A stretch of DNA of 64,000 bases, taken from positions 1,081,390 to 1,145,389 of the forward strand of contig OZ241913.1 of NCBI GenBank assembly GCA_965203775.1, written 5' to 3'. Both the position numbers and the translations under genes were made by a program. The stretch comes from Dehalococcoidia bacterium. Its GTDB lineage: Bacteria > Chloroflexota > Dehalococcoidia > Bin125. Shown piece by piece: positions 11,035-59,157 of this stretch (its first letter is position 1; every line of letters begins with the position of its first letter). The notes beneath the pieces are model-generated. The model had not been told where the DNA came from and ran no database searches. It saw only the letters and a list, made by a program, of their open reading frames with translations.

Positions 11035-11069
11035 CAGATTCAAAGGCCGCCAACGGAACGGAGCGCCAC

Positions 11070-19875: not shown

Positions 19876-19877
19876 CA

Positions 19878-24527: not shown

Positions 24528-24681
24528 CCCCCCAACCATCATTCCTGCGCAGGCAGGAACCCGCGCCCCCTCTCCGTCATTCCTGCGCAGGCAGGAACCT
24601 GCCACCCCCTCCCGTCATTCCTGCGCAGGCAGGAACCCGCGCCCCCTCTCCGTCATTCCTGCGCAGGCAGGAACCCACGCC

Positions 24682-32596: not shown

Positions 32597-32599
32597 ACG

Positions 32600-32989
32600 C
32601 CGAGCATACGCAGCGCCCGCACCCCACCCGTCATTCCTGCGCAGGCAGGAACCCACGCCTCCCTCTCCGTCATTCCTGCGCAGGCAGGAACCGCACCCCC
32701 TCTCCGTCATTCCCGCGCTCCTCCTCCGTCATTCCTGCGCAGGCAGGAACCCACCCACCCCACCACCCACCCCTTCCCCAATTCATCCCTCCCCCCTTTT
32801 AGGGGGGAGGTTAGGAGGGGGGTGGAAAGCCCCGAGCGTCCACCAGCGGCCGAGCGCGGCAACCCGCACCCACCAAGACGCATCCACACTCCCTTCACCC
32901 TCGCGCCTCCTCTCCGTCATTCCTGCGCAGGCAGGAACCCTCCCACCCCACCACCCACCCCTTCCCCAATTCATCCCTCCCCCCTTTTA
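32600..32989. repeat. composite REP-like array (modules A and B). The last module B is interrupted by the IS5-family insertion
   Basis: Sequence match to other arrays. Confidence 0.85.
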
Positions 32990-34431: not shown

Positions 34432-36249
34432 TTACCCGATCGGGGGGGGGGGGGGGATAAATTCCTCCCGATCGCCCTCGCGATCGCCGCGCTCCTGCTC
34501 GCCGCCCTGACCCTTGCCCAGGCCGCCACGCCCACCTCAACCAGCCGCTACCTCGCGCTGGACGCCGGCGGCGAGCACCAATGCACCCTCCGCGCCGACG
34601 GCGTGATTCGCTGCTGGGGCGGCAACTCATCCGAGCTGCGCGATGTTCCGGAGGGGCGCTACGCGGCGGTCGGTGCCGGGGCGTGGCACAACTGCGCGAT
34701 TCGGCGGGGGAGCGGGGATGTCGTCTGCTGGGGCGGAGACTCGAACGCGCCTGACGGCGCGTTCGTTGATGTGGCCGCAGGCTGGCAGTTCGCCTGCGGC
34801 GTGCGCGAGGCAGGCGAGCTTGAGTGCTGGGGAACCAGCAGCTTCGGGCGCAGCGTGCTCGACTACGGCCAAGCGGAGCCGCCCGATGGCGAATTCAGCG
34901 CGGTTAGCGCCGGCTACCTGCACGCCTGCGGACTGCAAACGACAGGCGAAATCACCTGTTGGGGCCGCGCCAACCTCGGACGCACCAACGCGCCATCAGG
35001 CACTTTCACCCAAGTAAGCGCCGGCACCACGCACAGCTGCGCCCTGCGCGAAACCGGCGCAGCCGAATGCTGGGGCCTCAACAACTTCGGCCAGATGGAC
35101 GCTCCCTCAGGCGTCTTCACCCAAATCAGCGCCGGAGCCTGGCACAGCTGCGGGTTGCGCGAATCAGGCGCAATCGAATGCTGGGGCGACGACCGCTACG
35201 GCCAGTCCAACGCCCCATCCGGGCGCTACCTCGCCGTGAGCGCGGGAATGCGCCACTCCTGCGCCCTAAGCCGCGCGGGCACGCGCTGCTGGGGCGGGCA
35301 GGACGATCGCCTGCCTGAGCTGATTGTGGAGCTCGCGCCGGCAAGCAGCACCCGGACCGTCGCGGCTCCCTCAAGCGGCGACGAAAGCGATACGACGCCG
35401 GACCCTGTGACGCCCACGCCGACACCAACACCGACTCCGCCGACGACGACCTTCACCACGCTGAGCGCGGGCGACTATCACAACTGCGCGCGACGCAGCA
35501 CGGGCACGATCGACTGCTGGGGCAGTAACACAAACGGTCAGAGCGCCGATCCCTCCGGCAGCAGCTTCACGACAGCCAGCGCGGGCACCTCGCAGAGCTG
35601 CGGGCTGACCAGCGCCGGTGCGCTCTCCTGCTGGGGGCTGAGCACTACGCGTCCGACCACGGCGCAGGCGCAATCCAGCACGTTCACCGCGGTTGACGCC
35701 GGCGGGGTTGTCTGCGCCGTGCGCAGCGCGGGCACGCTCGCCTGCTGGGGGACGGCCGCCTATGGCGAAGACACGCCACCGACGGGCAGCAGCTTTACGG
35801 CGGTGAGCGTGGGCGACGAGCACGCCTGTGCGCTGAGCAGCGCGGGCGCCATCTCCTGTTGGGGTCGAAGCGCCAATGGGCGGACGACGGTTACGGCTGG
35901 CACGTATACGGCCGTGAGCGCGGGCGGGTTCCATAGCTGCGGGCTGACCAGCACGGGCGCGATCGTCTGCTGGGGCTGGAATGGCTACGGTCAGAGCGCC
36001 GCGCAAACGGGGACATTCACGGCGGTCAGCGCGGGCTGGGGGCACACCTGCGGCCTGCGCAGCACGGGCGCGATCGAGTGCTGGGGTCGGAGCAGCGCCC
36101 ACCCGACCACGGCGCAGGGGCAATCGAGCACGTTCACGGCGGTCGCGGCAGGCCGCGATCACACCTGCGGGCTGAAGAGCGACGGCACGATCGCCTGCTG
36201 GGGCAGCAACGCGAGCGGGCAAGCGCCGACGGCGGGCGTGTCGCCGTAG
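34432..36249 (+). CDS. RCC1-like double beta-propeller secreted protein, paralog 2. Canonical TTG start replaced by TTA; G15 tract at 34442-34456; first usable in-frame start GTG at 34603
   Basis: The frame is open from 34432 and encodes the same signal peptide as paralogs 1 and 3, but the track ORF starts at 34603 because no start codon remains upstream. Confidence 0.55.
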   Translation, partial: LPDRGGGGDKFLPIALAIAALLLAALTLAQAATPTSTSRYLALDAGGEHQCTLRADGVIRCWGGNSSELRDVPEGRYAAVGAGAWHNCAIRRGSGDVVCWGGDSNAPDGAFVDVAAGWQFACGVREAGELECWGTSSFGRSVLDYGQAEPPDGEFSAVSAGYLHACGLQTTGEITCWGRANLGRTNAPSGTFTQVSAGTTHSCALRETGAAECWGLNNFGQMDAPSGVFTQISAGAWHSCGLRESGAIECWGDDRYGQSNAPSGRYLAVSAGMRHSCALSRAGTRCWGGQDDRLPELIVELAPASSTRTVAAPSSGDESDTTPDPVTPTPTPTPTPPTTTFTTLSAGDYHNCARRSTGTIDCWGSNTNGQSADPSGSSFTTASAGTSQSCGLTSAGALSCWGLSTTRPTTAQAQSSTFTAVDAGGVVCAVRSAGTLACWGTAAYGEDTPPTGSSFTAVSVGDEHACALSSAGAISCWGRSANGRTTVTAGTYTAVSAGGFHSCGLTSTGAIVCWGWNGYGQSAAQTGTFTAVSAGWGHTCGLRSTGAIECWGRSSAHPTTAQGQSSTFTAVAAGRDHTCGLKSDGTIACWGSNASGQAPTAGVSP

Positions 36250-39455: not shown

Positions 39456-39577
39456 CGCATCCCGGGCTGATCTGCGAGCTGGACCGGCCAGGCGTGGGCC
39501 GGTTCGGGCGTTGCGGCTTGCGCGCAATGCTAACGGCGCGCTGGGCGGCCGTCGCAGACATAAGCGCGTAGGCTGGG

Positions 39578-39835
39578 TTGGTGACTGAGCCCGCCGAGGA
39601 ATCGTTCGACGAATCGTTGCGCCTGTTCATCGCCGCGCGGCTGCCAGAGCGCGCGCAAGCGGAGGCGGGCGCGGCGCTGGCGCAGCTGCGCGCGGCGGGC
39701 TTGCCCGGCTGGCGCTGGGTTCGGCCGGCCGGGCTGCACCTGACGCTTCGCTTCCTGGGCGAGACGCGGCCCGATCAGGTCTGCCCCGCCGCCGAGGCGA
39801 TGCGGCTGAACGAAGAGCTGAGCGGCGCGGGTTGA
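39578..39835 (+). pseudogene. N-terminal fragment of RNA 2',3'-cyclic phosphodiesterase (ThpR/LigT, 2H family)
   Basis: RLFIAARLP ... LHLTLRFLGE (first HxT motif) but only 85 aa. The second HxT half is absent. Confidence 0.5.
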
Positions 39836-39889
39836 GCGGCGCTGTAGAATAAGGAGGCCGACTGAGCGAGGGACCTGCGAGGAGCAGCA

Positions 39890-40147
39890 ATGCAGAGCAG
39901 CCTGATCTCCAAGATCGAGAAGGCCCGAATCTACGCGAGCGAGAGCGATCGCTTCCGCTTCACCGCGCTGCAGTGCGATGTGCGGGGGGACTCCACGACG
40001 CACACCGCCCAACTCGGTCCCGACGGCTGGAGCTGCGACTGCCTGTTCTTCGCCGAGTTCGGCACCTGCTCGCACACAATGGCCCTGGAGCGCCTGCTGG
40101 ACGAGATGCTCCCGGAGCGCTACCGCCCAGCAATACCAAGCGCCTGA
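39890..40147 (+). CDS. small SWIM zinc-finger-like protein (CxC..CxH)
   Basis: WSCDCLFFAEFGTCSHTMAL. GGAG SD 7 nt before the ATG. Confidence 0.5.
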   Translation: MQSSLISKIEKARIYASESDRFRFTALQCDVRGDSTTHTAQLGPDGWSCDCLFFAEFGTCSHTMALERLLDEMLPERYRPAIPSA

Positions 40148-40189
40148 GGGCGGTCAGGGCCTCCCAAGGCTGTGCCGCCTTGTAGGGGT

Positions 40190-41100
40190 TAGGGGCTTTA
40201 GAGGTTGTGCCGCCCCCCGTCACCCCCGCGCCCTCTCCCCGTCATTCCCGCACCCCCTCTCCGACATTCCTGCGCCCCCTCTCCGTCATTCCTGCGCAGG
40301 CAGGAACCCGCAACCTCCCAATCCCCGCCTCACCTCCCCTCTTCCCCAATTCATCCCTCCCCCCTTCCAGGGGGGAGGTTAGGTGGGGGGTGGAACGCCG
40401 CGAGCGCACACCAGTCACGCCCCGCCCCGAAAATCACCCACGCCACCCGCCCCCCCGTCATTCCCGCGCCCGCCCTCCCGTCATCCCCGCGCCTCTCCCG
40501 TCATTCCTGCGCCCCCTCTCCGTCATTCCTGCGCAGGCAGGAACCCGCAACCTCCCACCCCCCGCCTCACCTCCCCTCTTCCCCAATTCATCCCTCCCCC
40601 CTTCCAGGGGGGAGGTGAGGTGGGGGGTGGAACGCCGCGAGCGCACACCAGTCACGCCCCGCCCCGAAATCACCCACGCCACCCACCCCCCGTCATTCCC
40701 GCGCCCGCCCTCCCGTCATCCCCGCACCCCCTCTCCGACATTCCTGCGTCCCTCTTCCGTCATTCCTGCGCAGGCAGGAACCCACCCGCGCCCACCCCCC
40801 ACCTCACCTCCCCTCTTCCCCAATTCATCCCTCCCCCCTCCCAGGGGGGAGGTTAGGTGGGGGGTGGGACGTTGCGAGCGACTACCAGCGATCGTTCGCG
40901 CCCCACTCGCCCACGCTGCGCCTCGACCGCCACGCTGCCATCTCATCCACCGTCATTCCTGCGCAGGCAGGAATCCAGCGCGCCTGCGCTCCATTCCGTC
41001 ATTCCTGCGCAGGCAGGAACCCGCGCCCTCCTCCCCGTCATTCAGGCCACTCTCTTTCCGTCATTCCTGCGCAGGCAGGAACCACCCCACACCCCCACTT
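40190..41100. repeat. composite REP-like array (3-4 A+B units)
   Basis: Repeated units near 40250-40400, 40490-40640, 40730-40870, 40940-41090. Confidence 0.9.
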
Positions 41101-41189
41101 CCCCCAAATCCTGCTACACTCACACTAGAACAGGAGTGCCGAACCATGCCTCTCTCCCCACAACACCGCCGCCCCTCCCTCCACGTCGA

Positions 41190-41300
41190 CGCCGTCAACC
41201 CCAACCTTGCCAACGCTGACCAAAACTTGACAGAGGTTGACACCAGGTTGACAAAAGTTGACAAGGGTTGACAAAAGTTGACACCGTCAACCCCTACCCC
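41190..41300 (+). promoter_or_regulatory. phased array of six direct GTTGACA repeats (10-11 bp period) flanked by inverted GTCAAC copies; iteron/operator-like
   Basis: AACTTGACAGAGGTTGACACCAGGTTGACAAAAGTTGACAAGGGTTGACAAAAGTTGACACCGTCAACCCC. GTCGAC and GCCGTCAAC lie upstream, GCGTCAAC..TGTCAAC downstream. Confidence 0.5.
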
Positions 41301-41628
41301 CACCCCAAACCCCAGCAAAACACAGCAAAACCGCAGCCACACCCACCACCCCGACACCCCCAGCGTCAACCTGCGCTGTCAACCCCTCCGACACACCCCG
41401 AACAACCCTGAACAAATCCGAACAACCCTGAACAAACCCGAACACCGCCGAACGCCCCGACCAGATAGGGAGCACCCCCAAATCACCCCCCAACACCCCC
41501 AAAAAAACAAACCCCGAACACCCTCTGCGCCGCCCGCCCGCGCGGTTCCTGCCTGCGCAGGAATGACGGAACGGGGGGCGCAGGGCATGACGGTTGGGGG
41601 GTGGCGGGGAGAGGAGCGTGAACAGGCG

Positions 41629-42105
41629 CTAGACGCCGGCGGTTTTGCGCCAGGCGCGGATGTCGGCCGTGTGCATGATGTCGTGCTCGATCAGGGCGTC
41701 GACGACGTCGTTGGGGCTGAGGCAGTCGGCCCCGAAGTCGTAGCAGGGCTGCTCCCGCTCGTCGTCGGTCTGGGCGCGGAGGCGGCGGGCGAGTTCCTCC
41801 GTGGAATTGCTCAGCGCGCTGAGCAGCTCGGGCAGCCCGCGATCGGCCCAGCTGCCCGGCACTGCGCCGTTCATCTCGTGCTCTTTGGGAAATTCGCCGA
41901 TTGGCTCGCCGCGGTCGTAGCGGTTCAGGACGCCGAGCAGCCAGGCGTCCCACGCGGTGAGGTGGGCGAGGCATTCGCGGATGCTCCAGACGCCGACCAC
42001 GTTGGGCTCGTCGTAGGTCTGCTCGGGCAGGTCGGCGGCCGCCTCGATCAGGCAGCGGCGGCTTTCCTCCAGGTCGATCGTTTCGCTTCGGGCTTCCGTA
42101 GTCAT
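41629..42105 (-). CDS. DinB_2 family protein
   Basis: WSIRECLAHLTAWDAWLLGVL ... HDIMHTADI. Confidence 0.65.
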   Translation of the reverse strand: MTTEARSETIDLEESRRCLIEAAADLPEQTYDEPNVVGVWSIRECLAHLTAWDAWLLGVLNRYDRGEPIGEFPKEHEMNGAVPGSWADRGLPELLSALSNSTEELARRLRAQTDDEREQPCYDFGADCLSPNDVVDALIEHDIMHTADIRAWRKTAGV

Positions 42106-42391
42106 GGCGTGTCCTGGGCAAGTTCTGGATTGGGGATCGAAATCGGGAATGCGCGGCCAGGGCCGCGGCGCGGGTCGCGCACTGCAACACAGTTGGGTTA
42201 ACGCTAGCCAAGCGGCGCCGCGGGTTTGCGTAGCCTGCGCTACAGAGCAGCGCGGGCGCGGGCGCTCGCTTGACGCTCAGGCGAGGCGCTAGATAGCCTG
42301 CGCACTTGGCGCCGCCGTCGTGGGGCCGTCGCATCGTGGCCGCTCCCGCGCGCCAGATCCGCCCCACCTTGCGCCCGAATGCTGGAGACGC

Positions 42392-43000
42392 ATGCGCTCT
42401 ATCGGACTCACGGGCGGGATCGCCTCGGGCAAATCCACGGTGGTCGGACTCCTCCAGGAGTTCGGGGCGGCGACGATCGACGCCGACAAGCTGGGACACC
42501 AAACCTACGAACCGGGCACGGACACGTTCCGCGCCGTGGTCGCCGCGTTCGGCGACGAGCTGGTCGCCGCCGACGGCACAATTGACCGTCGCGTGCTGGG
42601 CGGCAAGGTGTTCGGCAAGCCCGAGGAGCTGAAGCGGCTGACCGACATCGTCTGGCCGGGCATCCGCGCGCTGGCGGCCGCCGAGCTTGAGCGGCTCGCC
42701 GCAGCTGGGCAGACGGAAGTCGCCGTGCTGGAAGCGGCGGTGCTGATCGAGGCCGAGTGGCAGGATCTGGTGGATGAGGTCTGGGTGGTGTCCGTCTCGC
42801 CGCAGGCGGCGCGGGAACGGCTGATGGCGCGTAACAACATGAGCGCGGAGGACGCGGACGCGCGGATCAACTCCCAACTGAGCAACGACGAGCGGCTCGA
42901 GCACGCCGATGTGGTGATCGACACCGATTGCCCGCTGGAGGAAGTGCGCGGGCGCGTTGAGGCCGCCTGGGCCGAGCTCGGGCGGCGCAATGCCGACTGA
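42392..43000 (+). CDS. coaE: dephospho-CoA kinase
   Basis: IGLTGGIASGKST P-loop. GGAG SD before the ATG at 42392. Confidence 0.85.
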   Translation: MRSIGLTGGIASGKSTVVGLLQEFGAATIDADKLGHQTYEPGTDTFRAVVAAFGDELVAADGTIDRRVLGGKVFGKPEELKRLTDIVWPGIRALAAAELERLAAAGQTEVAVLEAAVLIEAEWQDLVDEVWVVSVSPQAARERLMARNNMSAEDADARINSQLSNDERLEHADVVIDTDCPLEEVRGRVEAAWAELGRRNAD

Positions 43001-43075
43001 GCCGACCAGGCCGACTGAGCCGACCGGGCCAACTGGACGGCAGGCAAGCGGATCGCAGCAGCGAGGGGACCATCG

Positions 43076-43972
43076 ATGACCACCGCAACCGAACCGATCA
43101 CCGAATACCGCTCCTGGGCGGTCGAGGAGTTTCGCCTCGAAGAAGAGCCCTACTACGTCCCCGTGAAGGACGAGGTGGAGGTCTTTCAGTCGGCCTGGAA
43201 CAGCAAGATCCCGGTGCTGCTCAAGGGCCCGACGGGCTGCGGCAAGACGCGCTTCGTGGAGTACATGGCCTATCACCTCAACCGCCCGCTGGCGGTGATG
43301 CGCGACGGCAAAGCGGAAATCGAGTCGGAGTCGAATCTGCCGCTGGTCACGGTCGCCTGCCACGAAGACCTGACGGCGAGCGACCTCGTGGGCCGCTACC
43401 TGCTCGAGGGCAACGAGACGGTCTGGATCGACGGGCCGCTGACCCGGGCGGTGAAGGCGGGCGCGATCTGCTACCTGGACGAGGTGGTGGAGGCGCGCAA
43501 GGACACGACGGTTCTGATCCACCCGCTGACGGACCACCGCCGAATCCTGCCGGTGGAGAAAAAGTCGCAACTGCTGCAGGCGCGCGACGGCTTTCTGCTG
43601 GTGATCTCCTTCAACCCGGGCTACCAGAGCGCGCTGAAGGACTTGAAGCAGAGCACGCGGCAGCGGTTCGTGGCGATCGAGTTCGACTACCCGCCGCGCG
43701 AGACCGAAGCGGAGATCGTGCGGCACGAGTCGGGCTGCGACCCGGAGACGGCGCTGAACCTGGCCAAGATGGCGGAGAAGATTCGCAACCTGCGCGAGCA
43801 CGGCCTGGCCGAGGGCGCGAGCACCCGGCTGCTGATCTACGCGGGGCGGATGATCACCCAGGGCGTCTCCCCGCGGCGGGCCTGCCAGGTCTCGATCGTC
43901 TGGCCGCTGACCGACGACGGCGAGATCCAGCGCAGCATCGAAGAGGTCGTGTCCTCGATCTTCGAGGACTAG
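43076..43972 (+). CDS. CbbQ/NirQ/NorQ/GpvN-family MoxR-type AAA+ ATPase
   Basis: Walker [12 protein letters not shown], Walker B ICYLDEV, 298 aa. Confidence 0.8.
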
Positions 43973-43997
43973 ACGCGGACGGGCGGGAGGTTCGGGC

Positions 43998-44576
43998 GTG
44001 CGTCTGGGCATCGTGAGCGACATCCACTGCAACATCGCGGCGCTGGACCGGGCGGTCGAGCAGATGGGCGAGATCGACGAACTGCTCTGCGCGGGCGACG
44101 CCTGCTACCAGTACCGCTTCTCCAACGAGGTGGCCGAGCGGCTGCGCGAACTGGGCGGCCGCTACGTGCTGGGCAACCACGAGGAGATCCTGCTCAGCGA
44201 GGCGGGCGCGCGCGCGCAGGCCTCGGAAACGGTCAACCGCGAACTGCTCGAGTGGACCCGGCAGCAGCCCCAGATCATCCGCTGCGAGGTGGGCGGGAAG
44301 CGCCTGCTGATGTTCCACGCCACGCCCTGGGCGCCCTACCGCGACTACCTGTTCCCCCACGATCCGCAGCTGGAACGGCTGGCGGAGGAAGAGGCGGACT
44401 TCATCATCTACGGGCACACCCACGCGCCGCTGGTGCGGCGAATCGGGCGCGCGCTGGTGATCAACCCCGGCTCGGCGGGGGAAGCGCGGGGCGTAGAGCG
44501 CAGCCTCACCTATGCTGTATTGGATACGGCCGCCGACGCGGCCACAATCGAGCAGATCGTCGTCGACGCGCCGTAA
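43998..44576 (+). CDS. calcineurin-like metallophosphoesterase (YfcE-type)
   Basis: GIVSDIHCN ... GDA ... GNHE ... GHTH motifs. Confidence 0.75.
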   Translation: MRLGIVSDIHCNIAALDRAVEQMGEIDELLCAGDACYQYRFSNEVAERLRELGGRYVLGNHEEILLSEAGARAQASETVNRELLEWTRQQPQIIRCEVGGKRLLMFHATPWAPYRDYLFPHDPQLERLAEEEADFIIYGHTHAPLVRRIGRALVINPGSAGEARGVERSLTYAVLDTAADAATIEQIVVDAP

Positions 44577-44614
44577 GCCGGCGGCGGCCCTGCCCACCCT
44601 CTGGACGGATGCCG

Positions 44615-47600
44615 ATGACCGATCGATCTACTTCCGAGTCGCCGCTGGAGACGGCGCGAGAGGCGCTGCGCGCCTTTCCGCCCGCCCTGAGCCAGGAATT
44701 CGAGTCCGCCGTTGAAGCGGTGCAGCCCGTGCTGGAGCCGGACGAATTCGCCGGCTGGATCGAGACGGGCCTGCAGGTCGCGCGGCACTCGCTGCGCTCC
44801 TGGGAGGCCGCCTCGGAGTACTTCCGCGGCAGCGGGCCGATGCTGGAGCAGGTGACCTACGAGCGAATGCGCGAGTGGTGCGATGTGGGCGTGGGGCTGA
44901 TGGATACCTCGCCGGCGCTGGCCGGGGCGCTGTTCCGCGCGAGCCCGCAGGTGCTGCCGCACCTCGCCGTGGCGCAAGCGCCCGACTGGGCCTCGCAGGG
45001 GCAATCCCTCTACAAGGGAACCTGGAAGTCCGGCTCGCTCTCGGCCCAGTACTTCGATGTCAGCCCGCAGGTGCTGCCGCACCTGCCGCTGAGCCAGATG
45101 CGGCTGCTGGTCGAACTGATCGACTCGCTGGCGAGCCACTCGTATGAGCTGGCCAGCGCCTGCCTGGGGATGGCGCCGACGGTGCTGGGTCAGCTCGAGC
45201 GCAGCGATCGCGCGCCGTTCCTGGAGTTCGGCGGAATCGTGGCGCACACGGCCTGGGTGGACGCCCGGGTCTACTTCGAGCGCGGTCCGGTCGCGCTACA
45301 GCAGATCAACGCGGAGCAGCGCGGGCGCTACCTGGGTCTGGCCGGGCAGGTGGCGCTGAAGGTGGGGCGGCTGGGCCACCCCTATTTCATCGAGTCGGCG
45401 CAGGCGCTCTCGGAGGTCGACCGCGACCTGCACGAGGGTCTGCTCGAGCTGTCGGAGCAGCTCGCGCCGCACTCGGGCGACGCGGCCATGGAGTTCCTCA
45501 AGTCCAGCCCGCGCGTCGTGCAGCGGCTGAGCATCGACGACATCGCGCGCTGGCAGGACTTCGGGCTCAACATCCTGCAGCAGAGCGTGGACGGCGGCGA
45601 GGCGTTCTTCCGGCTCGAGTCGACGCGCGGCGAAGAGGTGATGGAGGCGCTCTCGGCGCGGGTGGATCTGGATCGCGTCTCGGAGCTGATCCGGATGTAC
45701 TGCAAGGCGCTGACCGGCGTGGATGTGGGGATCAAGTCGTCGGAGGAGCTGGCCTCAAAGGGCGTGGGCTGGGTCGACGAAAGCAGCCCGACCACGGAGG
45801 GAACGACGATCTACCTGCCGGACATGGTCGAGCGCTACGCGAGCAAGGACGACAATTTCAGCGTTTACAAGGTGTTCGCGACGCACCAGGCCGGGCGGCT
45901 GGAGTTCGGCTCGTTCGAATACGACCAGCAGCGCTCGCCCCGCGTCTTCGAGCCGCAGGCGAACGGACAGGGCGCGAGCGTGAGCAGCGGCAACGGCGCC
46001 GCGCCGACCGGCGTTGCCGGAGAGACGCCTGAGGGAGCCGAGCAGGCGGAGATCCACACGGACATGGAGCGCTTCTTCGACCGCTTCGGCGACCGGCGGC
46101 TGGCCCACGATCTGTTCACAATCGTGGAGGACACGCGAATCGACACGATCGTCAAGCGGGAGTACGCCGGCGTGCGGCGCGCGCTGAACCGCCTGCAGCA
46201 GGCCGCCGCGGAGCAGCGGCGGCCGGTCGAAAACATGCCGGCCCGACAGGCGATGGTGGAAAACCTGCTGCGCGCCAGCCTCGACGACGCCGGCCGAATC
46301 CGCTGGCCCTCCGAGCTGGGCGAGCAACTGCGCGTCCCGCTGCGAATCCTCAACCAGATCCGCCAGGAAGGCGCGACCGTTGAGGACTCGGCGGCGGCCA
46401 CCCAGATGCTCTACGAGTGGGTCGCCCAGGTGCCCAATGTCGAGCTGGACGCCGAGGACTGGAGCGAGTTCGAGGATCCGCCGATGGCCGGCGAGCAGGA
46501 AGAGGGCGACGCGGATCTGATGCCGGGCAGCGGCTCGAGCGGGCTCGAAGAGTCGTTCATGCCGTTCATGCCGGGCAGCGAGGAGCGCCCCTACGACAGC
46601 CCCGAGCCGGTTGACTTCCGCGGCGATTTCAAGCCCGAACTGGTCCAACTGCTGATGAAGCTGAAGGGCGAGACGGGCACGGGCGACGCGCCGCCGATCC
46701 CCCTCTCCAAAGAACAGCTGCAGGAACTGCTCGAGAAGAGCGTGGAGATCTCGATCAACGAGCTGATGGACATGGACCTGGCCGAGTCCTCGGGCATGTT
46801 CCTGGACAACCTGCTCAAAGAGGTCAACAGCGTGCAGGGCGACCGCCCCGAAGGCCAGCAGGCGATGGGCGACGACAGCACCGGCGCGGACGACGGCGAG
46901 GAGCTGCCCGTCGAGGCGCAGTCCTTCTACTACGACGAGTGGGACTTCCGCGCGGCCGACTACAAGCCCCGCTGGTGCCGCGTGCAGGAGCAGCGCGGCG
47001 AGGTCGGCGACGTGGGCTACTACCAGGAGACGCTCCACGACCACGCCCAGCTGGTGCAGGAAACGCGCAAGCAGTTCGAGATGCTGCGCCCGGAACTCTT
47101 CCGCAAAATGAAGCGGCTGACCGACGGCGAGGACTACGACCTCGACGCCGTGATCGAGTGGTACACCGAGAAGATCGCCGGGGCCACGACGGAAACGAAG
47201 CTCTTCTACCGCCGCAACAAGGTGGAGCGCGATGTGGCCGTGGCCTTCCTGCTGGACGTCTCGGCCAGCACCGACGAGGAGATCCAGAAGCATCAGGACC
47301 GGCGGCAGGACGATCAGTTCGACGACGATCCGCGCAAATACCTCTCGTGGTGGGCGCAGCGTCGGGCCGAGGCCGCGCGGCACCCGGGCAAGCGAATCAT
47401 CGACCTCGAAAAGGAAGCGGTGGTGCTGCTGATCGAAGCGCTGGAGGCGATCGGCGACAAGTACGGCGTCTACGGCTTCAGCGGCTACGGGCGCGACAAC
47501 GTCGAGTTCTTCGTCTACAAGGACATGGACGAGCCCTTCGGCGACCGGACCAAGGAGCGGATCGACAAAATCGCGCCCGTGCGCTCGACGCGGATGGGCC

Positions 47601-47917
47601 CCGCGATTCGGCACTGCATCTGGAAGCTGCAGAACACCGACGCGAAGGTGAAGATCCTGATGCTGCTCTCCGACGGGCGGCCCCAGGACCACGGCTACGG
47701 GCGGGACCGAACGGAAAAGGAATACGCAATTCACGACACCAAGATGGCGCTGACCGAGGCGCGGCGCGAGGGCATGGTGCCGTTCGCGCTGACCGTCGAC
47801 CGGGCCGGGCACGACTACCTGAAGCAAATGTGCCAGGACATGGCCTACGAGGTGGTCGCCGACATCGAGTCGCTCCCGCGCCGCCTGCCGGCGCTCTACC
47901 GCCGGCTGACGGGCTGA
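44615..47917 (+). CDS. large (1100 aa) CbbO/NorD-like protein with C-terminal von Willebrand factor A domain
   Basis: C-terminal vWA with MIDAS LLDVSASTDE ... ILMLLSDGRPQD. ATG at 44615-44617. The upstream extension overlaps the phosphoesterase gene and is rejected. Confidence 0.7.
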   Translation: MTDRSTSESPLETAREALRAFPPALSQEFESAVEAVQPVLEPDEFAGWIETGLQVARHSLRSWEAASEYFRGSGPMLEQVTYERMREWCDVGVGLMDTSPALAGALFRASPQVLPHLAVAQAPDWASQGQSLYKGTWKSGSLSAQYFDVSPQVLPHLPLSQMRLLVELIDSLASHSYELASACLGMAPTVLGQLERSDRAPFLEFGGIVAHTAWVDARVYFERGPVALQQINAEQRGRYLGLAGQVALKVGRLGHPYFIESAQALSEVDRDLHEGLLELSEQLAPHSGDAAMEFLKSSPRVVQRLSIDDIARWQDFGLNILQQSVDGGEAFFRLESTRGEEVMEALSARVDLDRVSELIRMYCKALTGVDVGIKSSEELASKGVGWVDESSPTTEGTTIYLPDMVERYASKDDNFSVYKVFATHQAGRLEFGSFEYDQQRSPRVFEPQANGQGASVSSGNGAAPTGVAGETPEGAEQAEIHTDMERFFDRFGDRRLAHDLFTIVEDTRIDTIVKREYAGVRRALNRLQQAAAEQRRPVENMPARQAMVENLLRASLDDAGRIRWPSELGEQLRVPLRILNQIRQEGATVEDSAAATQMLYEWVAQVPNVELDAEDWSEFEDPPMAGEQEEGDADLMPGSGSSGLEESFMPFMPGSEERPYDSPEPVDFRGDFKPELVQLLMKLKGETGTGDAPPIPLSKEQLQELLEKSVEISINELMDMDLAESSGMFLDNLLKEVNSVQGDRPEGQQAMGDDSTGADDGEELPVEAQSFYYDEWDFRAADYKPRWCRVQEQRGEVGDVGYYQETLHDHAQLVQETRKQFEMLRPELFRKMKRLTDGEDYDLDAVIEWYTEKIAGATTETKLFYRRNKVERDVAVAFLLDVSASTDEEIQKHQDRRQDDQFDDDPRKYLSWWAQRRAEAARHPGKRIIDLEKEAVVLLIEALEAIGDKYGVYGFSGYGRDNVEFFVYKDMDEPFGDRTKERIDKIAPVRSTRMGPAIRHCIWKLQNTDAKVKILMLLSDGRPQDHGYGRDRTEKEYAIHDTKMALTEARREGMVPFALTVDRAGHDYLKQMCQDMAYEVVADIESLPRRLPALYRRLTG

Positions 47918-47921
47918 GCCC

Positions 47922-48254
47922 GTGCAACTGATCGGGGCCGGGCTGACTGTCGCCTCCCTGGCCGCGGCGATCGCCGCCGTGCTGCTGGGCGCGGCCTCGA
48001 CCAATCTCTATCTGGGCGCGGCAATCGCCGCCGGGGCGGGCACGGCGCTGTTCGCCGCGCAGCTAATTCACAGCCGCGCGGAGCTGTCGGCCTGGAGCGC
48101 GGTCGCGCCGCTCGGCGTGGCGCTGGGGCTGCTCGGCGTAGCGGCGAGCGGCGCCTCGTGCGGAGTGGCCTGCCTGGCGGTCGGCGCCCCGCTGGCCGGG
48201 CTGGCGCTGTACGCGCCGGAGCTCAATCTGCGGCTGCGCTCGGTCTTCCGCTAA
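47922..48254 (+). CDS. small Ala/Gly-rich membrane protein (about 3 TM helices)
   Basis: Hydrophobic composition. Immediately follows the vWA gene. Confidence 0.45.
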   Translation: MQLIGAGLTVASLAAAIAAVLLGAASTNLYLGAAIAAGAGTALFAAQLIHSRAELSAWSAVAPLGVALGLLGVAASGASCGVACLAVGAPLAGLALYAPELNLRLRSVFR

Positions 48255-48279
48255 CCGCGGGATTTGCTACTCTGGCGGC

Positions 48280-48711
48280 ATGGTCACTCTCGATCGACTT
48301 CCGATGCGCGATGTGCTCGTTGAGCAGCTCGACTGGGCGGAGGACGACGCGCGGGCGTTCTTGGATGTCCTCTTTGCGCCGGTGGAGAATCTGGCGACCA
48401 AGGACGATGTTGAGGCGGTCCGCGTGGAGCTACTCGCCGCTCGTGAGGAGCTCCTCACGGTTCGCAATGAGCTGCGCGGGGAGATCAATGGCGTCCGCGA
48501 TGAGCTGCGCGGCGACATCAACGGGGTTCGCGACGATCTGAAGCAATACATAGACCAACGTCTCGCCGAGCTGGCGAAGCAGCAAGACGAGCGCGAGCGT
48601 CGCATATACGCCGAGGTCAGATCGATGGTTCGCGCAGCCGAGGTGCGCATGCTGCTGCTGTTCACCGGAGGTTTTGGCACCGTGATCGGCCTTCTGCTCG
48701 AGCGGACCTAA
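48280..48711 (+). CDS. coiled-coil protein with C-terminal TM helix (DUF1640-like); internal NELRGEINGVRDELRGDINGVRDDL repeats
   Basis: Heptad-like repeats followed by a hydrophobic C-terminus LLLFTGGFGTVIGLLL. Confidence 0.5.
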   Translation: MVTLDRLPMRDVLVEQLDWAEDDARAFLDVLFAPVENLATKDDVEAVRVELLAAREELLTVRNELRGEINGVRDELRGDINGVRDDLKQYIDQRLAELAKQQDERERRIYAEVRSMVRAAEVRMLLLFTGGFGTVIGLLLERT

Positions 48712-48740
48712 GGAGGCGAAAGCGCCGCCGCAAGCTGTGC

Positions 48741-48821
48741 GCTGGTGTAGAGTTTCACTCATGCGACGCGACTCCCACACCCCGACCACCCTCCAACGCG
48801 CCTGCCGCGCGTTGGCGGCGC
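48741..48821 (+). promoter_or_regulatory. leader of RCC1-like paralog 3 (related to 13441-13522)
   Basis: Shares the ...CAACGCGCC.GCCGCGCG(TT/GC)GGCGGCGCTTGCCCGATCGG 3' half with the other two leaders. Confidence 0.3.
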
Positions 48822-50642
48822 TTGCCCGATCGGGGGGGGGGGGGGGGGGATAAATTCCTCCCGATCGCCCTCGCGATCGCCGCACTCCTGCTCGCCGCTC
48901 TGACCCTCGCCCAAGCCGCCACCCCCACCTCAACCAGCCGCTACCTGGCGCTCGACGCGGGCGGCGAGCATCAATGCACCCTCCGCGCCGACGGAGTCAT
49001 CCGCTGCTGGGGCGGCAATCAGGCAGATCTGCGCAACATCCCCGACGGCCGCTACAGCGCCATCAGCGCCGGCGCATGGCACAACTGCGCCATCCGCCAG
49101 GGCAGCGGCGAAATCGCCTGCTGGGGCGCAGATCAGAACGCGCCTGACGGCGCGTTCAGCGAGATCGCCGTCGGCTGGCAGTTCGCCTGCGCCATCCGCG
49201 CGAGCGACAGCGAGCTCGAATGCTGGGGAACCAACAGCTTCGGCCGCAGCGTTCTCGACTACGGCCAAGCCGACCCGCCCAACGGCGAGTTCACCTCCGT
49301 GAGCGCCGGCTACCTCCACGCCTGCGGACTACAAACGACAGGCGAAATCACCTGTTGGGGCCGCGACAACCTCGGACGCACCGACGCGCCTGAGGGCGTC
49401 TTCACACAGGTAAGCGCCGGCACCACGCACAGCTGCGCCATCCGCGAAAACGGCGCAGCCGAGTGTTGGGGCCTCAACAACTTCGGGCAGTTGGACGCCC
49501 CCTCAGGAGCCTTCACTCAAATCAGCGCGGGCGCATGGCATAGCTGCGGATTGCGCGAATCAGGCGCAATCGAGTGCTGGGGAGATGACCGCTACGGGCA
49601 GTCCAACGCTCCATCCGGGCGCTATGTCGCTGTGAGCGCAGGAATGCGCCACTCATGCGCGCTCAGCAGCGAGCGCGCTCGCTGCTGGGGCGGTCAGGAT
49701 GATCGCCTGCCTGAGCTGATCGCGGAGCTCGCCCCAACGAGCGCCACCCGGACCGTCGCGGATAGTTCGGCTGAGGACGAAAGCGACACAACGCCGGACC
49801 CTGTGGCGCCCACACCAACCCCCACGCCGACACCGACACCGACGACTACTTTCACCACGCTGAGCGCGGGCCAGTATCACACCTGCGCGCGGCGCAGCAC
49901 GGGGACGATCGACTGCTGGGGACAAAACACATACGGCCAGGACGCCGATCCCTCCGGCAGCAGCTTCACGGCGGTCAGCGCGGGCATTACTCAGAGCTGC
50001 GCGCTGACCAGCGCGGGCGCGCTCTCCTGTTGGGGGCGAAGCGTTAACCGTCCCACCACAACCCAGGCGCAATCCAGCACGTTCACAGCGGTCGCCGCCG
50101 GCGGGGTTGTCTGCGCCGTCCGCAGCGCGGGCACGCTCGCCTGTTGGGGGGCGACCGCCTACGGCCAAAACAACCCGCCTTCGGGCAGCAGCTTCACGGC
50201 GGTGAGCGTGGGCCATGATCACGCTTGCGCGCTGAGCAGCGCGGGGACGATCTCCTGCTGGGGTCGGAACAACAGCGGACAGCGAGATGTTACAGCCGGC
50301 ACCTACACGGCCGTCAGCGCGGGTGGGGTTCATACCTGCGGGTTGACCAGCACGGGCGCGATCGTCTGTTGGGGTTGGAACGCCTTGGGCCAGACCGACG
50401 CGCAGACGGGCACGTTCACGGCGGTCAGCGCGGGCTGGGGGCATACCTGTGGTTTGCGCAGCACGGGCACGATCGAGTGCTGGGGCAACAACGCGAACGG
50501 GCAAAGCACGGTCACTGCAGGTACGTACACGGCAGTCGCGGCAGGGCGCGAGCACACCTGCGGGTTGAAGACCGACGGCGCGATTGCCTGCTGGGGCAGT
50601 AACGCGAGCGGGCAAGCGCCGTCCACAGGCGTGTCGCCCTGA
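48822..50642 (+). CDS. RCC1-like double beta-propeller secreted protein, paralog 3. G18 tract at 48832-48849
   Basis: TTG start, MPDRGGGGGDKFLPIALAIAALLLAALTLAQA, two CWG-repeat propellers joined by a PTPTPTPTPTP linker. Confidence 0.7.
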   Translation: MPDRGGGGGDKFLPIALAIAALLLAALTLAQAATPTSTSRYLALDAGGEHQCTLRADGVIRCWGGNQADLRNIPDGRYSAISAGAWHNCAIRQGSGEIACWGADQNAPDGAFSEIAVGWQFACAIRASDSELECWGTNSFGRSVLDYGQADPPNGEFTSVSAGYLHACGLQTTGEITCWGRDNLGRTDAPEGVFTQVSAGTTHSCAIRENGAAECWGLNNFGQLDAPSGAFTQISAGAWHSCGLRESGAIECWGDDRYGQSNAPSGRYVAVSAGMRHSCALSSERARCWGGQDDRLPELIAELAPTSATRTVADSSAEDESDTTPDPVAPTPTPTPTPTPTTTFTTLSAGQYHTCARRSTGTIDCWGQNTYGQDADPSGSSFTAVSAGITQSCALTSAGALSCWGRSVNRPTTTQAQSSTFTAVAAGGVVCAVRSAGTLACWGATAYGQNNPPSGSSFTAVSVGHDHACALSSAGTISCWGRNNSGQRDVTAGTYTAVSAGGVHTCGLTSTGAIVCWGWNALGQTDAQTGTFTAVSAGWGHTCGLRSTGTIECWGNNANGQSTVTAGTYTAVAAGREHTCGLKTDGAIACWGSNASGQAPSTGVSP

Positions 50643-50885
50643 GCGAGGTTCCTGCCTGCGCAGGAATGACGAAGAGGGCGCAGGAATGACGGGAGAGGGC
50701 GCAGGGGTGACGGAGGGGGCGGCAGGAATGACGGAGTGGGTGGCAGGCACGACGGAACGGGAGCGTGCGGGGTTTGAGCGGCGGCAAGCGTGCTTGGTGC
50801 TCGGCGCGGCGAGATACCCGCGGCGAGCGCGGGTATGACGGATCTGGCTGTGCGGGGGCGGCGGATGGCGATGTGCGAGCAGGCC

Positions 50886-51356
50886 CTAGCCGCCCGAGGC
50901 GGCGGCGGGCTCCGCCGCATTGCCGCTTGCGCCGCAGGCGATGTTCTGCTCGGCGCAGCAGGTGTCCTCGATCAGCGTGACCAGCTCTGCGGCGGGCTGG
51001 TCGTCGGTGATCGTGTAGACCTCCCAGCGCAGGCCGGCCGGGTCGCGCACCCAGACCTTGTCCTGCTCCGCGTGGCAGCAGACCACCGCGTCCTCGATTT
51101 CCAGCTCGTGCCCGAGCTGGCCGAGCCGCTGCGTCTCCGCGACGACTTGGCCGGTGCTCTCGACCTCGACGCCGAGGTGGTTGAGGTCGCCGCCCTGGCC
51201 GTTCTCGATCAGCACCAGCTTGAGCGGCGGGTCGGCCACCTCGAAGTTGGCGTAGCCGGGCCGCACCTTGTGCGGTTCGGTGCGGAAGAGTTGCGAGTAG
51301 AAATCGATCGCCGAGTCGAGCTCGGCCACGTTGAGCGCCAGCTGCACGCGAGCCAT
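50886..51356 (-). CDS. ArsI/CadI-family VOC metalloenzyme (vicinal Cys pair)
   Basis: VOC fold with VVCCHAEQD and a second CC pair near the C-terminus, as in ArsI/CadI. Confidence 0.6.
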   Translation of the reverse strand: MARVQLALNVAELDSAIDFYSQLFRTEPHKVRPGYANFEVADPPLKLVLIENGQGGDLNHLGVEVESTGQVVAETQRLGQLGHELEIEDAVVCCHAEQDKVWVRDPAGLRWEVYTITDDQPAAELVTLIEDTCCAEQNIACGASGNAAEPAAASGG

Positions 51357-51419
51357 TGGGTTCCCCCTTGTGTTGCTCCTGCGTCGATTCGGTTCGACTT
51401 GCTCAGCCTACCCCGATCC

Positions 51420-52508
51420 TCAGGCAGCGGCGTTCACCGCCTGCATTCGCGGAATCACCCAGCGGCCGAAGCGCTCCGCTTCCGCGTCGTGCGGATAGCC
51501 GCTCAGGCAAAACTCGCTGCAACCCAGATCGACGAAGCGCTGGAGCGTCGCCGCGACCTGCTCCGGATTCCCGACGACGCAGACGCCCGCGCCGGTGCGC
51601 ACCGTGCTGATGCCGCTCCAGAGATGCGGCGCGATCAGGTAGTCGTTGTCGGCCGAGGCTTCGGCGAGCTGCCACATCCGCGTGTCGGCCTCGGAGTCGG
51701 CCGCGATTGCCCGGCGGCGCTCCCGCTGCCGCTCGGTGGTTCCCTCGATCAGCGCGTGCGCCGCGTCCCAGGCTTCGGCTTCGGTCTCGCGCACCACGAC
51801 CTGCAAGCGCATCCCGAAGCTCAGCTGCTCGCGCCCCGCGCGCCGCGCGCGGGCGCGAATGTCGGCGATCTTCTCCGCCGTCCGCTCGGGCGTATCGCCC
51901 CAGAAGAAGTAGCAGTCGGCGTGCCGCGCGCCCACCTCGCGCGCCGCCTCCGACTCGCCGCCGATGTAGAAGCGCGGCCAGGGCCGCTGTAGCGGCTTGG
52001 GCTGCACCTCCGCGCCGCGCAACTGGAAGTGCCGCCCCTCCCAGTCGAGCGGCGCATCCGCCGTCCAGAGCGCCTTCATAATCTCGACCGACTCGTCCAT
52101 CACCGCGTAGCGCTGATCGTGCGGGATCAGCAGCCCGTCTTGCGCGAGTTGGGCCGGGTCGCCGCCGGCGATCAGGTTGATCGCCATCCGCCCGCCGCTG
52201 AGCTGGTCGAACGTTGCGATCATCTTCGCCATCAGCGTCGGCACGATGTAGCCCGGCCGCGCCGCGACCAGCATGCTCAGCCGGGTGGTCTTGGCCGAGA
52301 CCATCGCGCAGGCGATCCAGGCCTCCCAGCAGGCCGACGCGACGGGCACGAGCGCGTACTCGAAGCCGGCCCGTTCCGCGGCCAGCGCGACCCGCTCGAA
52401 CAACTCGAGCCCGGGCGGCGAGGTGCAGGTCGGATCGACAAAGCGATCAAAGTCGCCGTAGGTGGGGATGAACCAGCCGAAACGCAGCGGCGCTTCGTTC
52501 GTCGGCAT
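51420..52508 (-). CDS. LLM-class (luciferase-like) flavin-dependent oxidoreductase
   Basis: LRFGWFIPTYGD N-terminus. AGGAGG SD before the ATG at 52506-52508. Confidence 0.75.
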   Translation of the reverse strand: MPTNEAPLRFGWFIPTYGDFDRFVDPTCTSPPGLELFERVALAAERAGFEYALVPVASACWEAWIACAMVSAKTTRLSMLVAARPGYIVPTLMAKMIATFDQLSGGRMAINLIAGGDPAQLAQDGLLIPHDQRYAVMDESVEIMKALWTADAPLDWEGRHFQLRGAEVQPKPLQRPWPRFYIGGESEAAREVGARHADCYFFWGDTPERTAEKIADIRARARRAGREQLSFGMRLQVVVRETEAEAWDAAHALIEGTTERQRERRRAIAADSEADTRMWQLAEASADNDYLIAPHLWSGISTVRTGAGVCVVGNPEQVAATLQRFVDLGCSEFCLSGYPHDAEAERFGRWVIPRMQAVNAAA

Positions 52509-54034: not shown

Positions 54035-55703
<1,669 letters not shown>

Positions 55704-56649: not shown

Positions 56650-57085
56650 GCCAGTCTACGCGGCCAGCGCGCATGCGGGCGCGCTCACACAAGAGTCTGT
56701 TCACGCATCCCTCAGCCCCACCATCCCCCAACCGCCATTCCTGCGCAGGCAGGAACCCACCATCCACGCGCTTCCGTCATTCCTGCGCAGGCAGGAACCC
56801 GCGCGCCCCTCACCGTCATTCCTGCGCTCTATCCGTCATTCCTGCGCAGGCAGGAACCCGCGCGCCCCTCACCGTCATTCCTGCGCTCTATCCGTCATTC
56901 CTGCGCAGGCAGGAACCCACCCACCCACGCTCCCGTCATTCCTGCGCAGGCAGGAACCCGCGCACCCCCCAACCGTCATTCCTGCGCAGGCAGGAACCCA
57001 CCACCGCTACTCAACTTCCCCCATCCCAAATTCATCCCTCCCCCCTTCCAGGGGGGAGGTTAGGTGGGGGGTGAGACGCCGCGAG
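56650..57085. repeat. composite REP-like array (7 module-A copies + 1 module B) adjacent to tRNA-Lys
   Basis: Sequence match. Confidence 0.9.
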
Positions 57086-58476: not shown

Positions 58477-59157
58477 ATGCCCCAGACCGCCAAAACCGCA
58501 CCCGAGCCGCTCAAAATCTGGTACCTGATCGACCGCTCCGGCTCCATGCGCCCGCTCCGCAAGGCCGTCGTCCGCGAGACCAACAAGCTGCTCGCCGAGC
58601 AGCGCCGCGGCGACGACGACTGCCGCATCACCATCGCCCAGTTCGACTCCCAAGAGCCCTTCGAGCTGATCGTCGACGATGAAGCGATCGGCGACGTCAA
58701 GCCTCTCACCGCCGACGACTACAAGCCGCGCGCCACCACCCCGCTCTACGACGCCATCGGCGCGCTGATCAGCCGCGCCGACCGCCGCATCAGCGAGCGC
58801 CAAACCGCACGCCTGCCCGAAGAAGACCAACTGCTCGTCATCTTCACCGACGGCCTCGAAAACGCCAGCACCGACTACCAGCGCGACACCATCATCGAGC
58901 TGCTCGACGAGCGCCAGAACCAGGGCTGGACGATCGGCTACCTCGGCGCGAACCAGGACGCCTACGCCGAAAGCCGCAAGCTCGGCATCGACCGCCGCAG
59001 CGCCTCCAACTTCGACGCCTCCGCGGGCGGCGTCGCCCGCGCCAACCGCTCCGTCAGCCGCGGCATTACGGAGCGCCGCGCTATGACACGCGCCCACCGC
59101 CGCCGCGCCAACCGCGACTTCTTCCAGGGCACCCGCGAAGCCGAGCAGCCCGAATAG
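58477..59157 (+). CDS. stand-alone cytoplasmic vWA-domain protein
   Basis: MIDAS DRSGSM ... TPLYDAI ... FTDGLEN. Confidence 0.6.
   Translation: MPQTAKTAPEPLKIWYLIDRSGSMRPLRKAVVRETNKLLAEQRRGDDDCRITIAQFDSQEPFELIVDDEAIGDVKPLTADDYKPRATTPLYDAIGALISRADRRISERQTARLPEEDQLLVIFTDGLENASTDYQRDTIIELLDERQNQGWTIGYLGANQDAYAESRKLGIDRRSASNFDASAGGVARANRSVSRGITERRAMTRAHRRRANRDFFQGTREAEQPE

Follow-up and report, generated by a model that had tools for sequence, protein, structure and literature searches.

What does a CbbQ/NorQ-type ATPase do where neither Rubisco nor nitric-oxide reductase (NOR), the enzymes served by its well-studied relatives, is encoded beside it? The question is raised by a gene cluster of a Dehalococcoidia bacterium (GenBank assembly GCA_965203775.1, contig OZ241913.1), which we analysed within a 64,000-nt stretch of DNA (contig positions 1,081,390 to 1,145,389; G+C about 70%), hereafter the window. 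Six co-oriented plus-strand genes span 42392-48711 and encode, in order, dephospho-coenzyme A (CoA) kinase (coaE), a MoxR AAA+ ATPase, a YfcE-type metallophosphoesterase, a long VWA protein, a small membrane protein and a coiled-coil protein (Table 1), separated by gaps of 75, 25, 38, 4 and 25 nt. The identical ATPase protein is encoded on several assembled contigs of about 3.4 Mb. An earlier sequence-only reading of this DNA had described the last five open reading frames (ORFs), all of which we recovered on the plus strand, as was the 38-bp gap between the phosphoesterase and VWA genes; the gap between the ATPase and phosphoesterase genes, given as 26 bp, measures 25 nt, and coaE, 75 nt upstream of the ATPase gene, had not been mentioned. 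The core of the cluster is very probably a protein-remodelling machine of the CbbQO/NorQD type. For the cluster as a whole, we lean cautiously towards a housekeeping remodeller that would act on a client other than Rubisco or NOR and would be coupled to a nucleotide- or CoA-type hydrolase.

Of the machines built on MoxR ATPases of the CbbQ/GvpN/NorQ (CGN) subfamily, two are well studied, CbbQO and NorQD, and each has its client encoded adjacent. The former, a Rubisco activase, consists of a CbbQ hexamer and a CbbO adaptor (Tsai et al. 2015, PMC4660213; reviewed in PMC5437159), and the latter is the FeB-insertion chaperone of cNOR (PMC9976466, PMC13036017). The ATPase of the window comprises an AAA_5 module (PF07728, 105.7 bits) followed by a CbbQ_C helical domain (PF08406, 105.4 bits). 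Among solved structures, phmmer matched it to CsoCbbQ 5c3c (E 2e-103), 6l1q (E 1e-94) and NorQ 9qh4 (E 2e-93), and at E 2.5e-37 to the AAA modules of midasin. Its alignment with CbbQ runs nearly end to end with a single 18-aa insertion, and identity to CsoCbbQ is about 60%, a figure estimated by eye from the residue alignment rather than computed. Walker A, Walker B and an H2-insert fitting the motif GRxLL/IxxxxT are all present and are kept together in 112 of 114 orthologues; in cryo-electron microscopy structures of NorQD, it is this H2-insert that grips the NorD finger (PMC13036017). Judged from these matches, the ATPase appears to be a genuine CGN-type MoxR protein.

For the VWA protein, the sole Pfam match is a VWA domain at residues 931-1078 (23.5 bits, cutoff 23.8), and the first 750 or so residues match no Pfam or NCBIfam model. 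A profile of its family matches NorD (9qhd_G) at E 4e-46, with profile positions 754-872 aligned to NorD 355-472, including the finger (403-448), and positions 906-1081 aligned to NorD 473-644; the alignment ends at NorD residue 644 of 646, in register with the essential last residues of NorD. A Foldseek search with the AlphaFold model returned the VWA domain of NorD (9qh6_G) as the best match and the MIDAS domain of MDN1 (midasin) as the next. The protein carries both MIDAS motifs (Table 1); all 157 family members examined retain DxSxST, and the family also has a conserved C-terminal tail, YRxLT followed by one further residue. In the AlphaFold model, residues 769-794 in the finger region form a beta-hairpin, and by analogy with NorD this finger would enter the ATPase pore. 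It is preceded by a linker (residues 621-765; 24% Asp plus Glu, net charge -26) with a predicted local distance difference test (pLDDT) score mostly below 50, which matches the NorD linker in position. The finger, the last two residues and the linker of NorD are each needed for function, and the linker is essential for remodelling (PMC13036017). These profile and structure-database matches bear out the initial assignment of a CbbQ-like ATPase paired with a CbbO/NorD-like vWA protein. The description of the latter as unusually long (1100 aa) with a very acidic mid-region (residues 605-770, 25% Asp plus Glu, net charge -33) is correct as well. By sequence criteria the VWA protein thus looks to be a genuine partner of a CGN ATPase, and it is called the adaptor below.

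The N-terminal part of the adaptor departs from those of its relatives. With hhalign, residues 217-1099 align with whole relatives of CbbO length, about 760 aa (probability 100, E 1e-49), and the first 200 or so residues are without counterpart in these; NorD-sized relatives align confidently only from residue 716, and weakly over 350-525 (63% probability). Within the core N-domain, hhalign places the motifs AHxxAH and IEDARVE of the 760-aa and about 598-aa relatives on THQAGRLEF and VEDTRID of the adaptor, the second His of AHxxAH being Arg in the window. Residues H424, Q425, E430, E505, D506, R508 and D510 are invariant in one family alignment (A4) and fall in invariant or nearly invariant columns of a broader one (A3), and the motifs THQ...EF and EDxRID occur in equivalent form in long adaptors, 760-aa proteins and NorD-like groups. 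Residues 10-347 are modelled with pLDDT above 90 as about 18 helices forming about eight two-helix repeats of about 37 aa. An AlphaFold check of this region, which the sequence-only reading had suggested, gave confident helical repeats but no significant fold match in the Protein Data Bank (PDB): in a Foldseek search of the PDB with the confident model of the N-terminal 620 residues, no hit improved on E 0.09, and the hits were to designed repeat proteins. Since the N-domains of NorD and CbbO are thought to set client specificity (PMC9976466), the enlarged N-terminus argues for a different client.

To define the conserved unit, we called and clustered genes at 80 genome and 80 metagenome loci around adaptor relatives, plus a few others (about 160 loci in all). 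The stable arrangement is coaE, then a CbbQ/NorQ-type AAA+ gene, then a slot holding a phosphoesterase gene, a NUDIX gene or nothing, then a VWA gene of about 1,080 codons. Among the 104 related loci with room upstream, coaE lies directly upstream of the ATPase gene on the same strand in 94, which makes it the most constant neighbour of the pair, and this linkage persists despite changes in both flanks and over a G+C range of 0.29 to 0.69. The only genes recurrently co-oriented with the pair are coaE, the phosphoesterase or NUDIX gene and, in Tepidiformaceae, a histidine phosphatase gene found 3′ of the adaptor gene in 18 loci. The cluster has descended vertically, along with a housekeeping gene, throughout an entire class and is probably transcribed together with coaE; linkage to this essential gene suggests a constitutive maintenance use.

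The gene-neighbourhood analysis thus replaces the five-gene arrangement first taken as the unit with one that includes coaE and leaves out the two downstream genes. The 110-aa membrane protein has no match in Pfam, NCBIfam or PADLOC, and its gene is confined to relatives with a VWA protein at least 84% identical, among which it is itself 43-75% identical. Its differences by codon position (526/420/753) are those of a coding but weakly constrained gene, and it is a lineage-specific addition outside the system. The coiled-coil gene is seen in few loci and is absent from three (L001, L003 and L004) whose ATPase is 100% identical, so that it is strain-variable and probably not part of the system. 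Its earlier description as a DUF1640-like coiled-coil and transmembrane protein holds for the coiled coil and the C-terminal transmembrane segment; the PF07798 match covers the coiled-coil part only and falls below the Pfam threshold (24 versus 33.5 bits).

Relatives of the adaptor were found in at least 489 genome records, nearly all from Dehalococcoidia/Chloroflexota and including the cultured Tepidiforma flava; their automatic source names call them NorD. With the N-terminal 750 aa alone, 1133 cluster representatives were retrieved (E<=1e-3), many being full-length with 26-35% identity. The marine-metagenome carriers are probably SAR202-like. A divergent branch occurs in contigs source-named Deltaproteobacteria or Proteobacteria, where the ATPase-adaptor pair stands by itself among unrelated neighbours in the four contexts sampled, one of which has a GlpX-type bisphosphatase gene upstream. 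On a 46.6-kb plasmid of Miltoncostaea oceani (NZ_CP064358.1, L178), positions 7524-11234 hold a CbbQ-family gene and genes for a 363-aa hypothetical and a 549-aa VWA protein, near thiolase, DUF35-like OB-fold and AMP-binding genes; the latter two ORFs appear to be a long adaptor split in two. Two further loci (L092, 6197-9298; L093, 6199-9274) encode pairs of a CbbQ-type ATPase and a CbbO-length protein of about 760 aa directly 3′ of genes for a CN-hydrolase (amidase-type) and an ABC transporter rather than beside Rubisco; L092 lies near urease genes as well. These suggest an amidase-linked branch of the family, and their position away from Rubisco agrees with a published note that CbbQ/CbbO-like pairs also occur without linkage to Rubisco (PMC5437159).

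Between the ATPase and adaptor genes, the slot is filled by a phosphoesterase gene in 51 loci, a NUDIX gene in 40, nothing in 26 and a cyclophilin gene in three; another gene lies directly upstream of the adaptor gene in 16, and the contig end cuts 21. No locus examined carries both hydrolases. A neighbour-joining tree groups the NUDIX loci in one large clade that is mostly marine; phosphoesterase loci fall in the clades holding the window and Tepidiformaceae, and a further clade consists of the empty-slot loci. The phosphoesterase is accordingly not an insertion peculiar to one strain, which the sequence-only reading had held open, being spread over several Dehalococcoidia lineages. Of the five metal-binding motifs of the Metallophos_2 fold, a search of the window's enzyme found four (DIH, GD, GNHE and GHTH), and the His of the fourth motif of the fold was read directly from the sequence. 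All four searched motifs are retained by 53 of 54 orthologues; the related solved structures are 3rqz, 3ck2, 3qfm, 1su1 and 2ahd. On these residues, the enzyme is apparently catalytically intact. Its gene stays immediately upstream of the VWA gene even when other genes part it from the ATPase gene (L046 and L171).

The best NCBIfam match of the slot NUDIX proteins is, by a wide margin, the CoA pyrophosphatase model NF007980 (83-110 bits), and the solved structures related to them are all CoA diphosphatases (Deinococcus 1nqy, human NUDT7 and plant NUDT11). Upstream of FPGG, 33 of 42 copies carry a CoA-type signature in loose form and 3 of 42 in strict PROSITE-like form. Overlaps of 4-41 nt between the NUDIX and VWA genes as called are frequent, and the NUDIX slot lies two genes from coaE. 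At a minority of loci (L046, L052, L083, L084, L162, L164, L168 and L171), one or two genes for cyclophilin-type peptidyl-prolyl isomerases stand in the slot, or directly upstream of the adaptor gene at cut contigs.

We then considered what the client may be. The called genes within about 10 kb of the cluster include no Rubisco or NorB/COX1-type gene, and neither do the ten largest other ORFs of the window. T. flava YIM 72310 (L051) carries the complete order coaE, ATPase, phosphoesterase, adaptor and histidine phosphatase, and two Tepidiforma isolates, this strain included, are described as aerobic heterotrophs only, with no known autotrophy genes or alternative electron acceptors (PMC10284905). 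The lack of a Rubisco or NOR context, first remarked on from the sequence, therefore extends beyond the window to cultured carriers. Two other leads were followed and dropped. An acyl-CoA synthetase gene, a CCG/Fe-S oxidoreductase gene and the beta and alpha genes of electron transfer flavoprotein (ETF) lie upstream of coaE on the same strand at 34 genome loci and a few metagenome loci (carriers include L007-L028, L030, L034-L038, L141, L143 and L149, among others); this set is missing from the window, the NUDIX clade and Tepidiformaceae, and as a lead to the client the ETF and Fe-S oxidoreductase genes were treated as inherited synteny. Outside Chloroflexota, an acyl-CoA dehydrogenase, synthetase or thiolase gene lies within about 5 kb in four of six independent contexts, which is not above chance (about 39% per locus, a rough estimate assuming that about 4% of genes are of this kind).

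Compared with CbbQO, the likeness extends to the ATPase, to the nearly full-length alignment of the adaptor with CbbO-length proteins, to the C-terminal VWA domain with its MIDAS and to an adaptor gene placed downstream of the ATPase gene; the adaptor alignment was made with 760-aa relatives that adjoin amidase genes, in place of a biochemically proven CbbO. The systems differ in that no Rubisco gene is nearby, here or in the Tepidiforma carriers, that the adaptor has about 200 extra N-terminal helical-repeat residues and a longer acidic linker, and that a phosphoesterase gene parts the pair and coaE lies upstream. With NorQD, the cluster has in common the H2-insert GRxLLxxxxT, the finger and VWA homology with the best structural match, the register of the C-terminus with the essential tail of NorD, an intervening linker and a core motif of the N-domain, whereas NorD is only about 600-640 aa long with an N-domain that aligns weakly, and here norCB genes are missing and an extra solenoid and an accessory hydrolase gene are present. 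In midasin/Rea1, a linker rich in Asp and Glu precedes the MIDAS domain. The adaptor likewise has an acidic linker before its MIDAS domain, which adds to the matches with the midasin AAA modules and the MDN1 MIDAS domain, but this is a bacterial system of separate subunits with one AAA module per chain and no link to ribosome biogenesis.

From the homology, motifs, gene order and distribution described above, we infer how the complex would form and remodel its client, how the hydrolase would be coupled to it and what the ligand might be. By homology, a hexamer of the CbbQ-like ATPase would hold one long VWA adaptor, whose finger would occupy the ring pore and whose C-terminal tail would rest on the post-sensor-1 loop. 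Powered by ATP hydrolysis, the VWA/MIDAS domain would turn relative to the N-terminal domains through the acidic linker and stretch it; this transfers to the present system, because of the homology, the ATP-driven rotation/linker mechanism described for NorQD (PMC13036017). The client, recognised by the MIDAS site and the enlarged helical-repeat N-terminus, would thereby be opened, releasing a tightly bound ligand or admitting a cofactor. It would be neither Rubisco nor NOR and would be encoded elsewhere in the genome. A small nucleotide-type phosphohydrolase would work alongside the machine and most likely destroy the freed CoA-like or adenine-nucleotide-like ligand. A parallel is provided by Rubisco activases, for which CbbY-type xylulose-1,5-bisphosphate (XuBP) phosphatase and 2-carboxyarabinitol 1-phosphate (CA1P) phosphatase destroy inhibitors freed by the activases (cited in PMC5437159). 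The likeness is one of concept only, a small phosphohydrolase destroying an AAA+-released ligand; folds and substrates differ, and here the link would follow from gene order alone.

A functional link between the remodeller and the slot hydrolase is put forward tentatively, and we would not count it as the likelier outcome. The suggestion that ligand hydrolysis accompanies remodelling comes from the way in which two unrelated nucleotide-type hydrolases replace each other in the slot, one being of CoA type and encoded two genes from coaE. Several observations weigh against it. The slot is empty in 26 loci and in Desulfobacterota-like relatives, so that the hydrolase is dispensable, and in a few loci it takes cyclophilin, short-chain dehydrogenase/reductase (SDR) or other genes and may simply tolerate insertions. 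Each hydrolase may represent one ancient inherited insertion, that is, about two or three independent events and not ninety. The NUDIX scores of 83-110 bits lie below the NCBIfam equivalog cutoff of 134, nothing ties the YfcE-type enzyme to CoA, and gene neighbours outside the core unit vary between loci and pinpoint no client. Because the slot can be empty, other genes occur in it, single insertions are possible and a tie between YfcE and CoA is lacking, the ligand-hydrolysis step is the weakest part of the proposal.

A more specific version, which we consider doubtful, is a CoA-linked enzyme-repair module in which motor and adaptor would pry a dead-end CoA-type ligand containing 3′-phospho-ADP from a CoA-dependent client. 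Destruction of this ligand would fall to the phosphoesterase or, in the marine sister clade, to the CoA pyrophosphatase, and CoaE would complete the resynthesis of CoA from the salvaged phosphopantetheine. If true, an activase logic known so far only for Rubisco would be applied to CoA metabolism, and it would operate in one of the ocean's most abundant bacterial groups.

The slot can also be read without any coupling. It is possible, though on the unlikely side, that the same remodeller matures or repairs an unlinked enzyme, for example by metal insertion into a respiratory or other metalloenzyme in the way that NorQD serves cNOR, and that coaE, the phosphoesterase and the NUDIX genes are passengers sharing its transcription unit, in which case CoA and nucleotides would play no part. 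The empty slots in 26 loci and in relatives outside Chloroflexota would then need no special account, nor would the cyclophilin and SDR genes that can fill it; local synteny is conservative in these lineages, where ETF genes upstream and CinA/ComB downstream likewise persist, and known MoxR-VWA pairs often serve metal insertion. Passengers fit less well with a slot that two different nucleotide-type phosphohydrolases take up in reciprocal clades, their active sites intact and their gene junctions tight or overlapping, with a NUDIX protein specifically of CoA type two genes from coaE, or with a coaE linkage that survives scrambled flanks and the whole range of G+C. The phosphoesterase might instead be a subunit docked on the helical-repeat N-terminus, or a client receiving metals from the machine. 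Vps29, a protein of Metallophos_2 fold, docks on the solenoid of Vps35, and both the large extra solenoid of the adaptor and the persistent adjacency of the phosphoesterase and VWA genes in L046 and L171 would suit such an arrangement. We regard it as improbable, given that the catalytic residues are kept in 53 of 54 copies, unlike in scaffold-type members of the family, that the solenoid extension is also present in the NUDIX and empty-slot clades, and that the unrelated NUDIX fold fills the same slot.

The link to conflict and signalling drawn in the sequence-only reading now has very little to commend it. In such a system, effector or sensor roles would fall to the membrane and coiled-coil proteins. 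MoxR-VWA modules reportedly occur in some conflict systems, and the two downstream genes vary in the manner typical of defence islands. However, PADLOC models gave only P-loop-level matches (22 bits or less), no effector-type gene was seen at the locus, most members lack the variable genes, the core and coaE have descended together vertically across a class and not in an island-like pattern, and the near end-to-end match with CbbQ places the ATPase in the chaperone-type CGN subfamily. A similarly slight chance attaches to an ordinary Rubisco activase or NOR maturation factor with client genes elsewhere in the genome. The automatic name NorD and an ATPase closest to carboxysomal CbbQ would speak for it, against which stand Tepidiforma carriers without autotrophy genes or alternative electron acceptors, an adaptor N-terminus that resembles NorD only weakly over 350-525, and the fact that the closest shorter relatives sampled adjoin amidase genes and not Rubisco.

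Under the housekeeping-remodeller proposal, the motor-adaptor design of CbbQO and NorQD recurs here with a different, larger client-recognition end, in a housekeeping operon across Dehalococcoidia-type Chloroflexota. The components are known families and orphan CbbQ/CbbO-like pairs are already known. In the literature searched, we did not find the long adaptor form, the class-wide coaE operon or a slot alternating between phosphoesterase and CoA-type NUDIX, nor any report linking coaE or CoA pyrophosphatase with MoxR, CbbQ or NorQ, or Dehalococcoidia or SAR202 with these proteins, which agrees with the early impression of a possibly uncharacterised arrangement. The alternating hydrolases and the constant coaE linkage provide a testable lead to a new client class and raise the idea of activase-type enzyme repair outside carbon fixation. 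Tepidiforma strains can be cultured, which makes a direct search for the client feasible.

Table 1. Positions of the cluster, its parts and other features of the window
Feature	Position	Strand	Basis or remark
coaE (dephospho-CoA kinase)	42392-43000	+	Pfam CoaE E 1e-48; NCBIfam TIGR00152 155 bits vs cutoff 65.6
CbbQ/NorQ-class MoxR AAA+ ATPase, 298 aa	43076-43972	+	AAA_5 and CbbQ_C, each about E 1e-30
ATPase Walker A, GPTGCGKT	43226-43249
ATPase H2-insert	43391-43420
ATPase Walker B	43472-43483
YfcE-type metallophosphoesterase, 192 aa	43998-44576	+	Metallophos_2 E 3e-30; TIGR00040 YfcE 62.8 bits vs cutoff 56.25
Long CbbO/NorD-type VWA adaptor, 1100 aa	44615-47917	+	hhalign, family profile, Foldseek
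Adaptor N-terminal helical-repeat (alpha-solenoid) region, aa 10-347	44642-45655	+	AlphaFold models
Adaptor core N-domain, aa 350-620	45662-46474	+	Motifs common to CbbO- and NorD-like proteins
Adaptor acidic linker, predicted disordered, aa 621-765	46475-46909	+	Composition and pLDDT
Adaptor finger, VWA/MIDAS domain and conserved C-terminal tail, aa 766-1100	46910-47917	+	Alignment to NorD
Adaptor MIDAS motif DVSAS	47255-47269
Adaptor MIDAS motif SDGRPQD	47669-47689
Small hydrophobic protein, 110 aa	47922-48254	+	Hydropathy, about 3-4 transmembrane segments
Coiled-coil protein with C-terminal transmembrane segment, 143 aa	48280-48711	+	Sub-threshold PF07798; one hydrophobic segment
REP-like repeat (examples)	5888-6782, 11873-11999, 16414-16646, 19541-19893, 24491-24697, 32583-32977, 56890-57018
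RCC1-repeat paralogues (three)	13523-15310, 34603-36249, 48822-50642		Third immediately follows the cluster
DDE_Tnp_1/DUF772 transposase	33139-34170	-	Adjoins second RCC1 paralogue and repeat arrays
LigT-like 2H phosphoesterase gene	39578-39835	+	85 aa here vs 203 aa in L002 and L004; appears truncated
N6/N4 DNA methylase fused to Mrr-type restriction endonuclease domain	54357-55703	+
Separate 226-aa VWA-domain protein, DRSGS MIDAS-like start	58477-59157	+	Unrelated in position to the cluster

Around the cluster, no Rfam family was found within 39500-51500, and promoter and terminator scans of the locus were uninformative. A REP-like repeat with the core CCGTCATTCCTGCGCAGGCAGGAACC, which can form the hairpin TTCCTGC/GCAGGAA, occurs at least 39 times in the window, at many intergenic sites and often in tandem at a period of 37-38 nt. 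None lies inside 41629-50642, the next copy starting at 50647. Upstream of a DinB-like gene and coaE there is a gene-less gap (40147-41629) with three 237-nt tandem units (40261-40970) around the REP-like repeat; a 354-aa ORF in this gap has no Pfam match, and related strains have different genes at its position.

The three RCC1-repeat paralogues have stretches of 300 nt in common in their 5′ regions, with 92% identity between the first two and 69% to the third. Their third-position GC bias is unusually weak, and their copy number and position differ between near-identical strains. In a related strain (L006), a different methylase is paired with Eco29kI upstream of the cluster.

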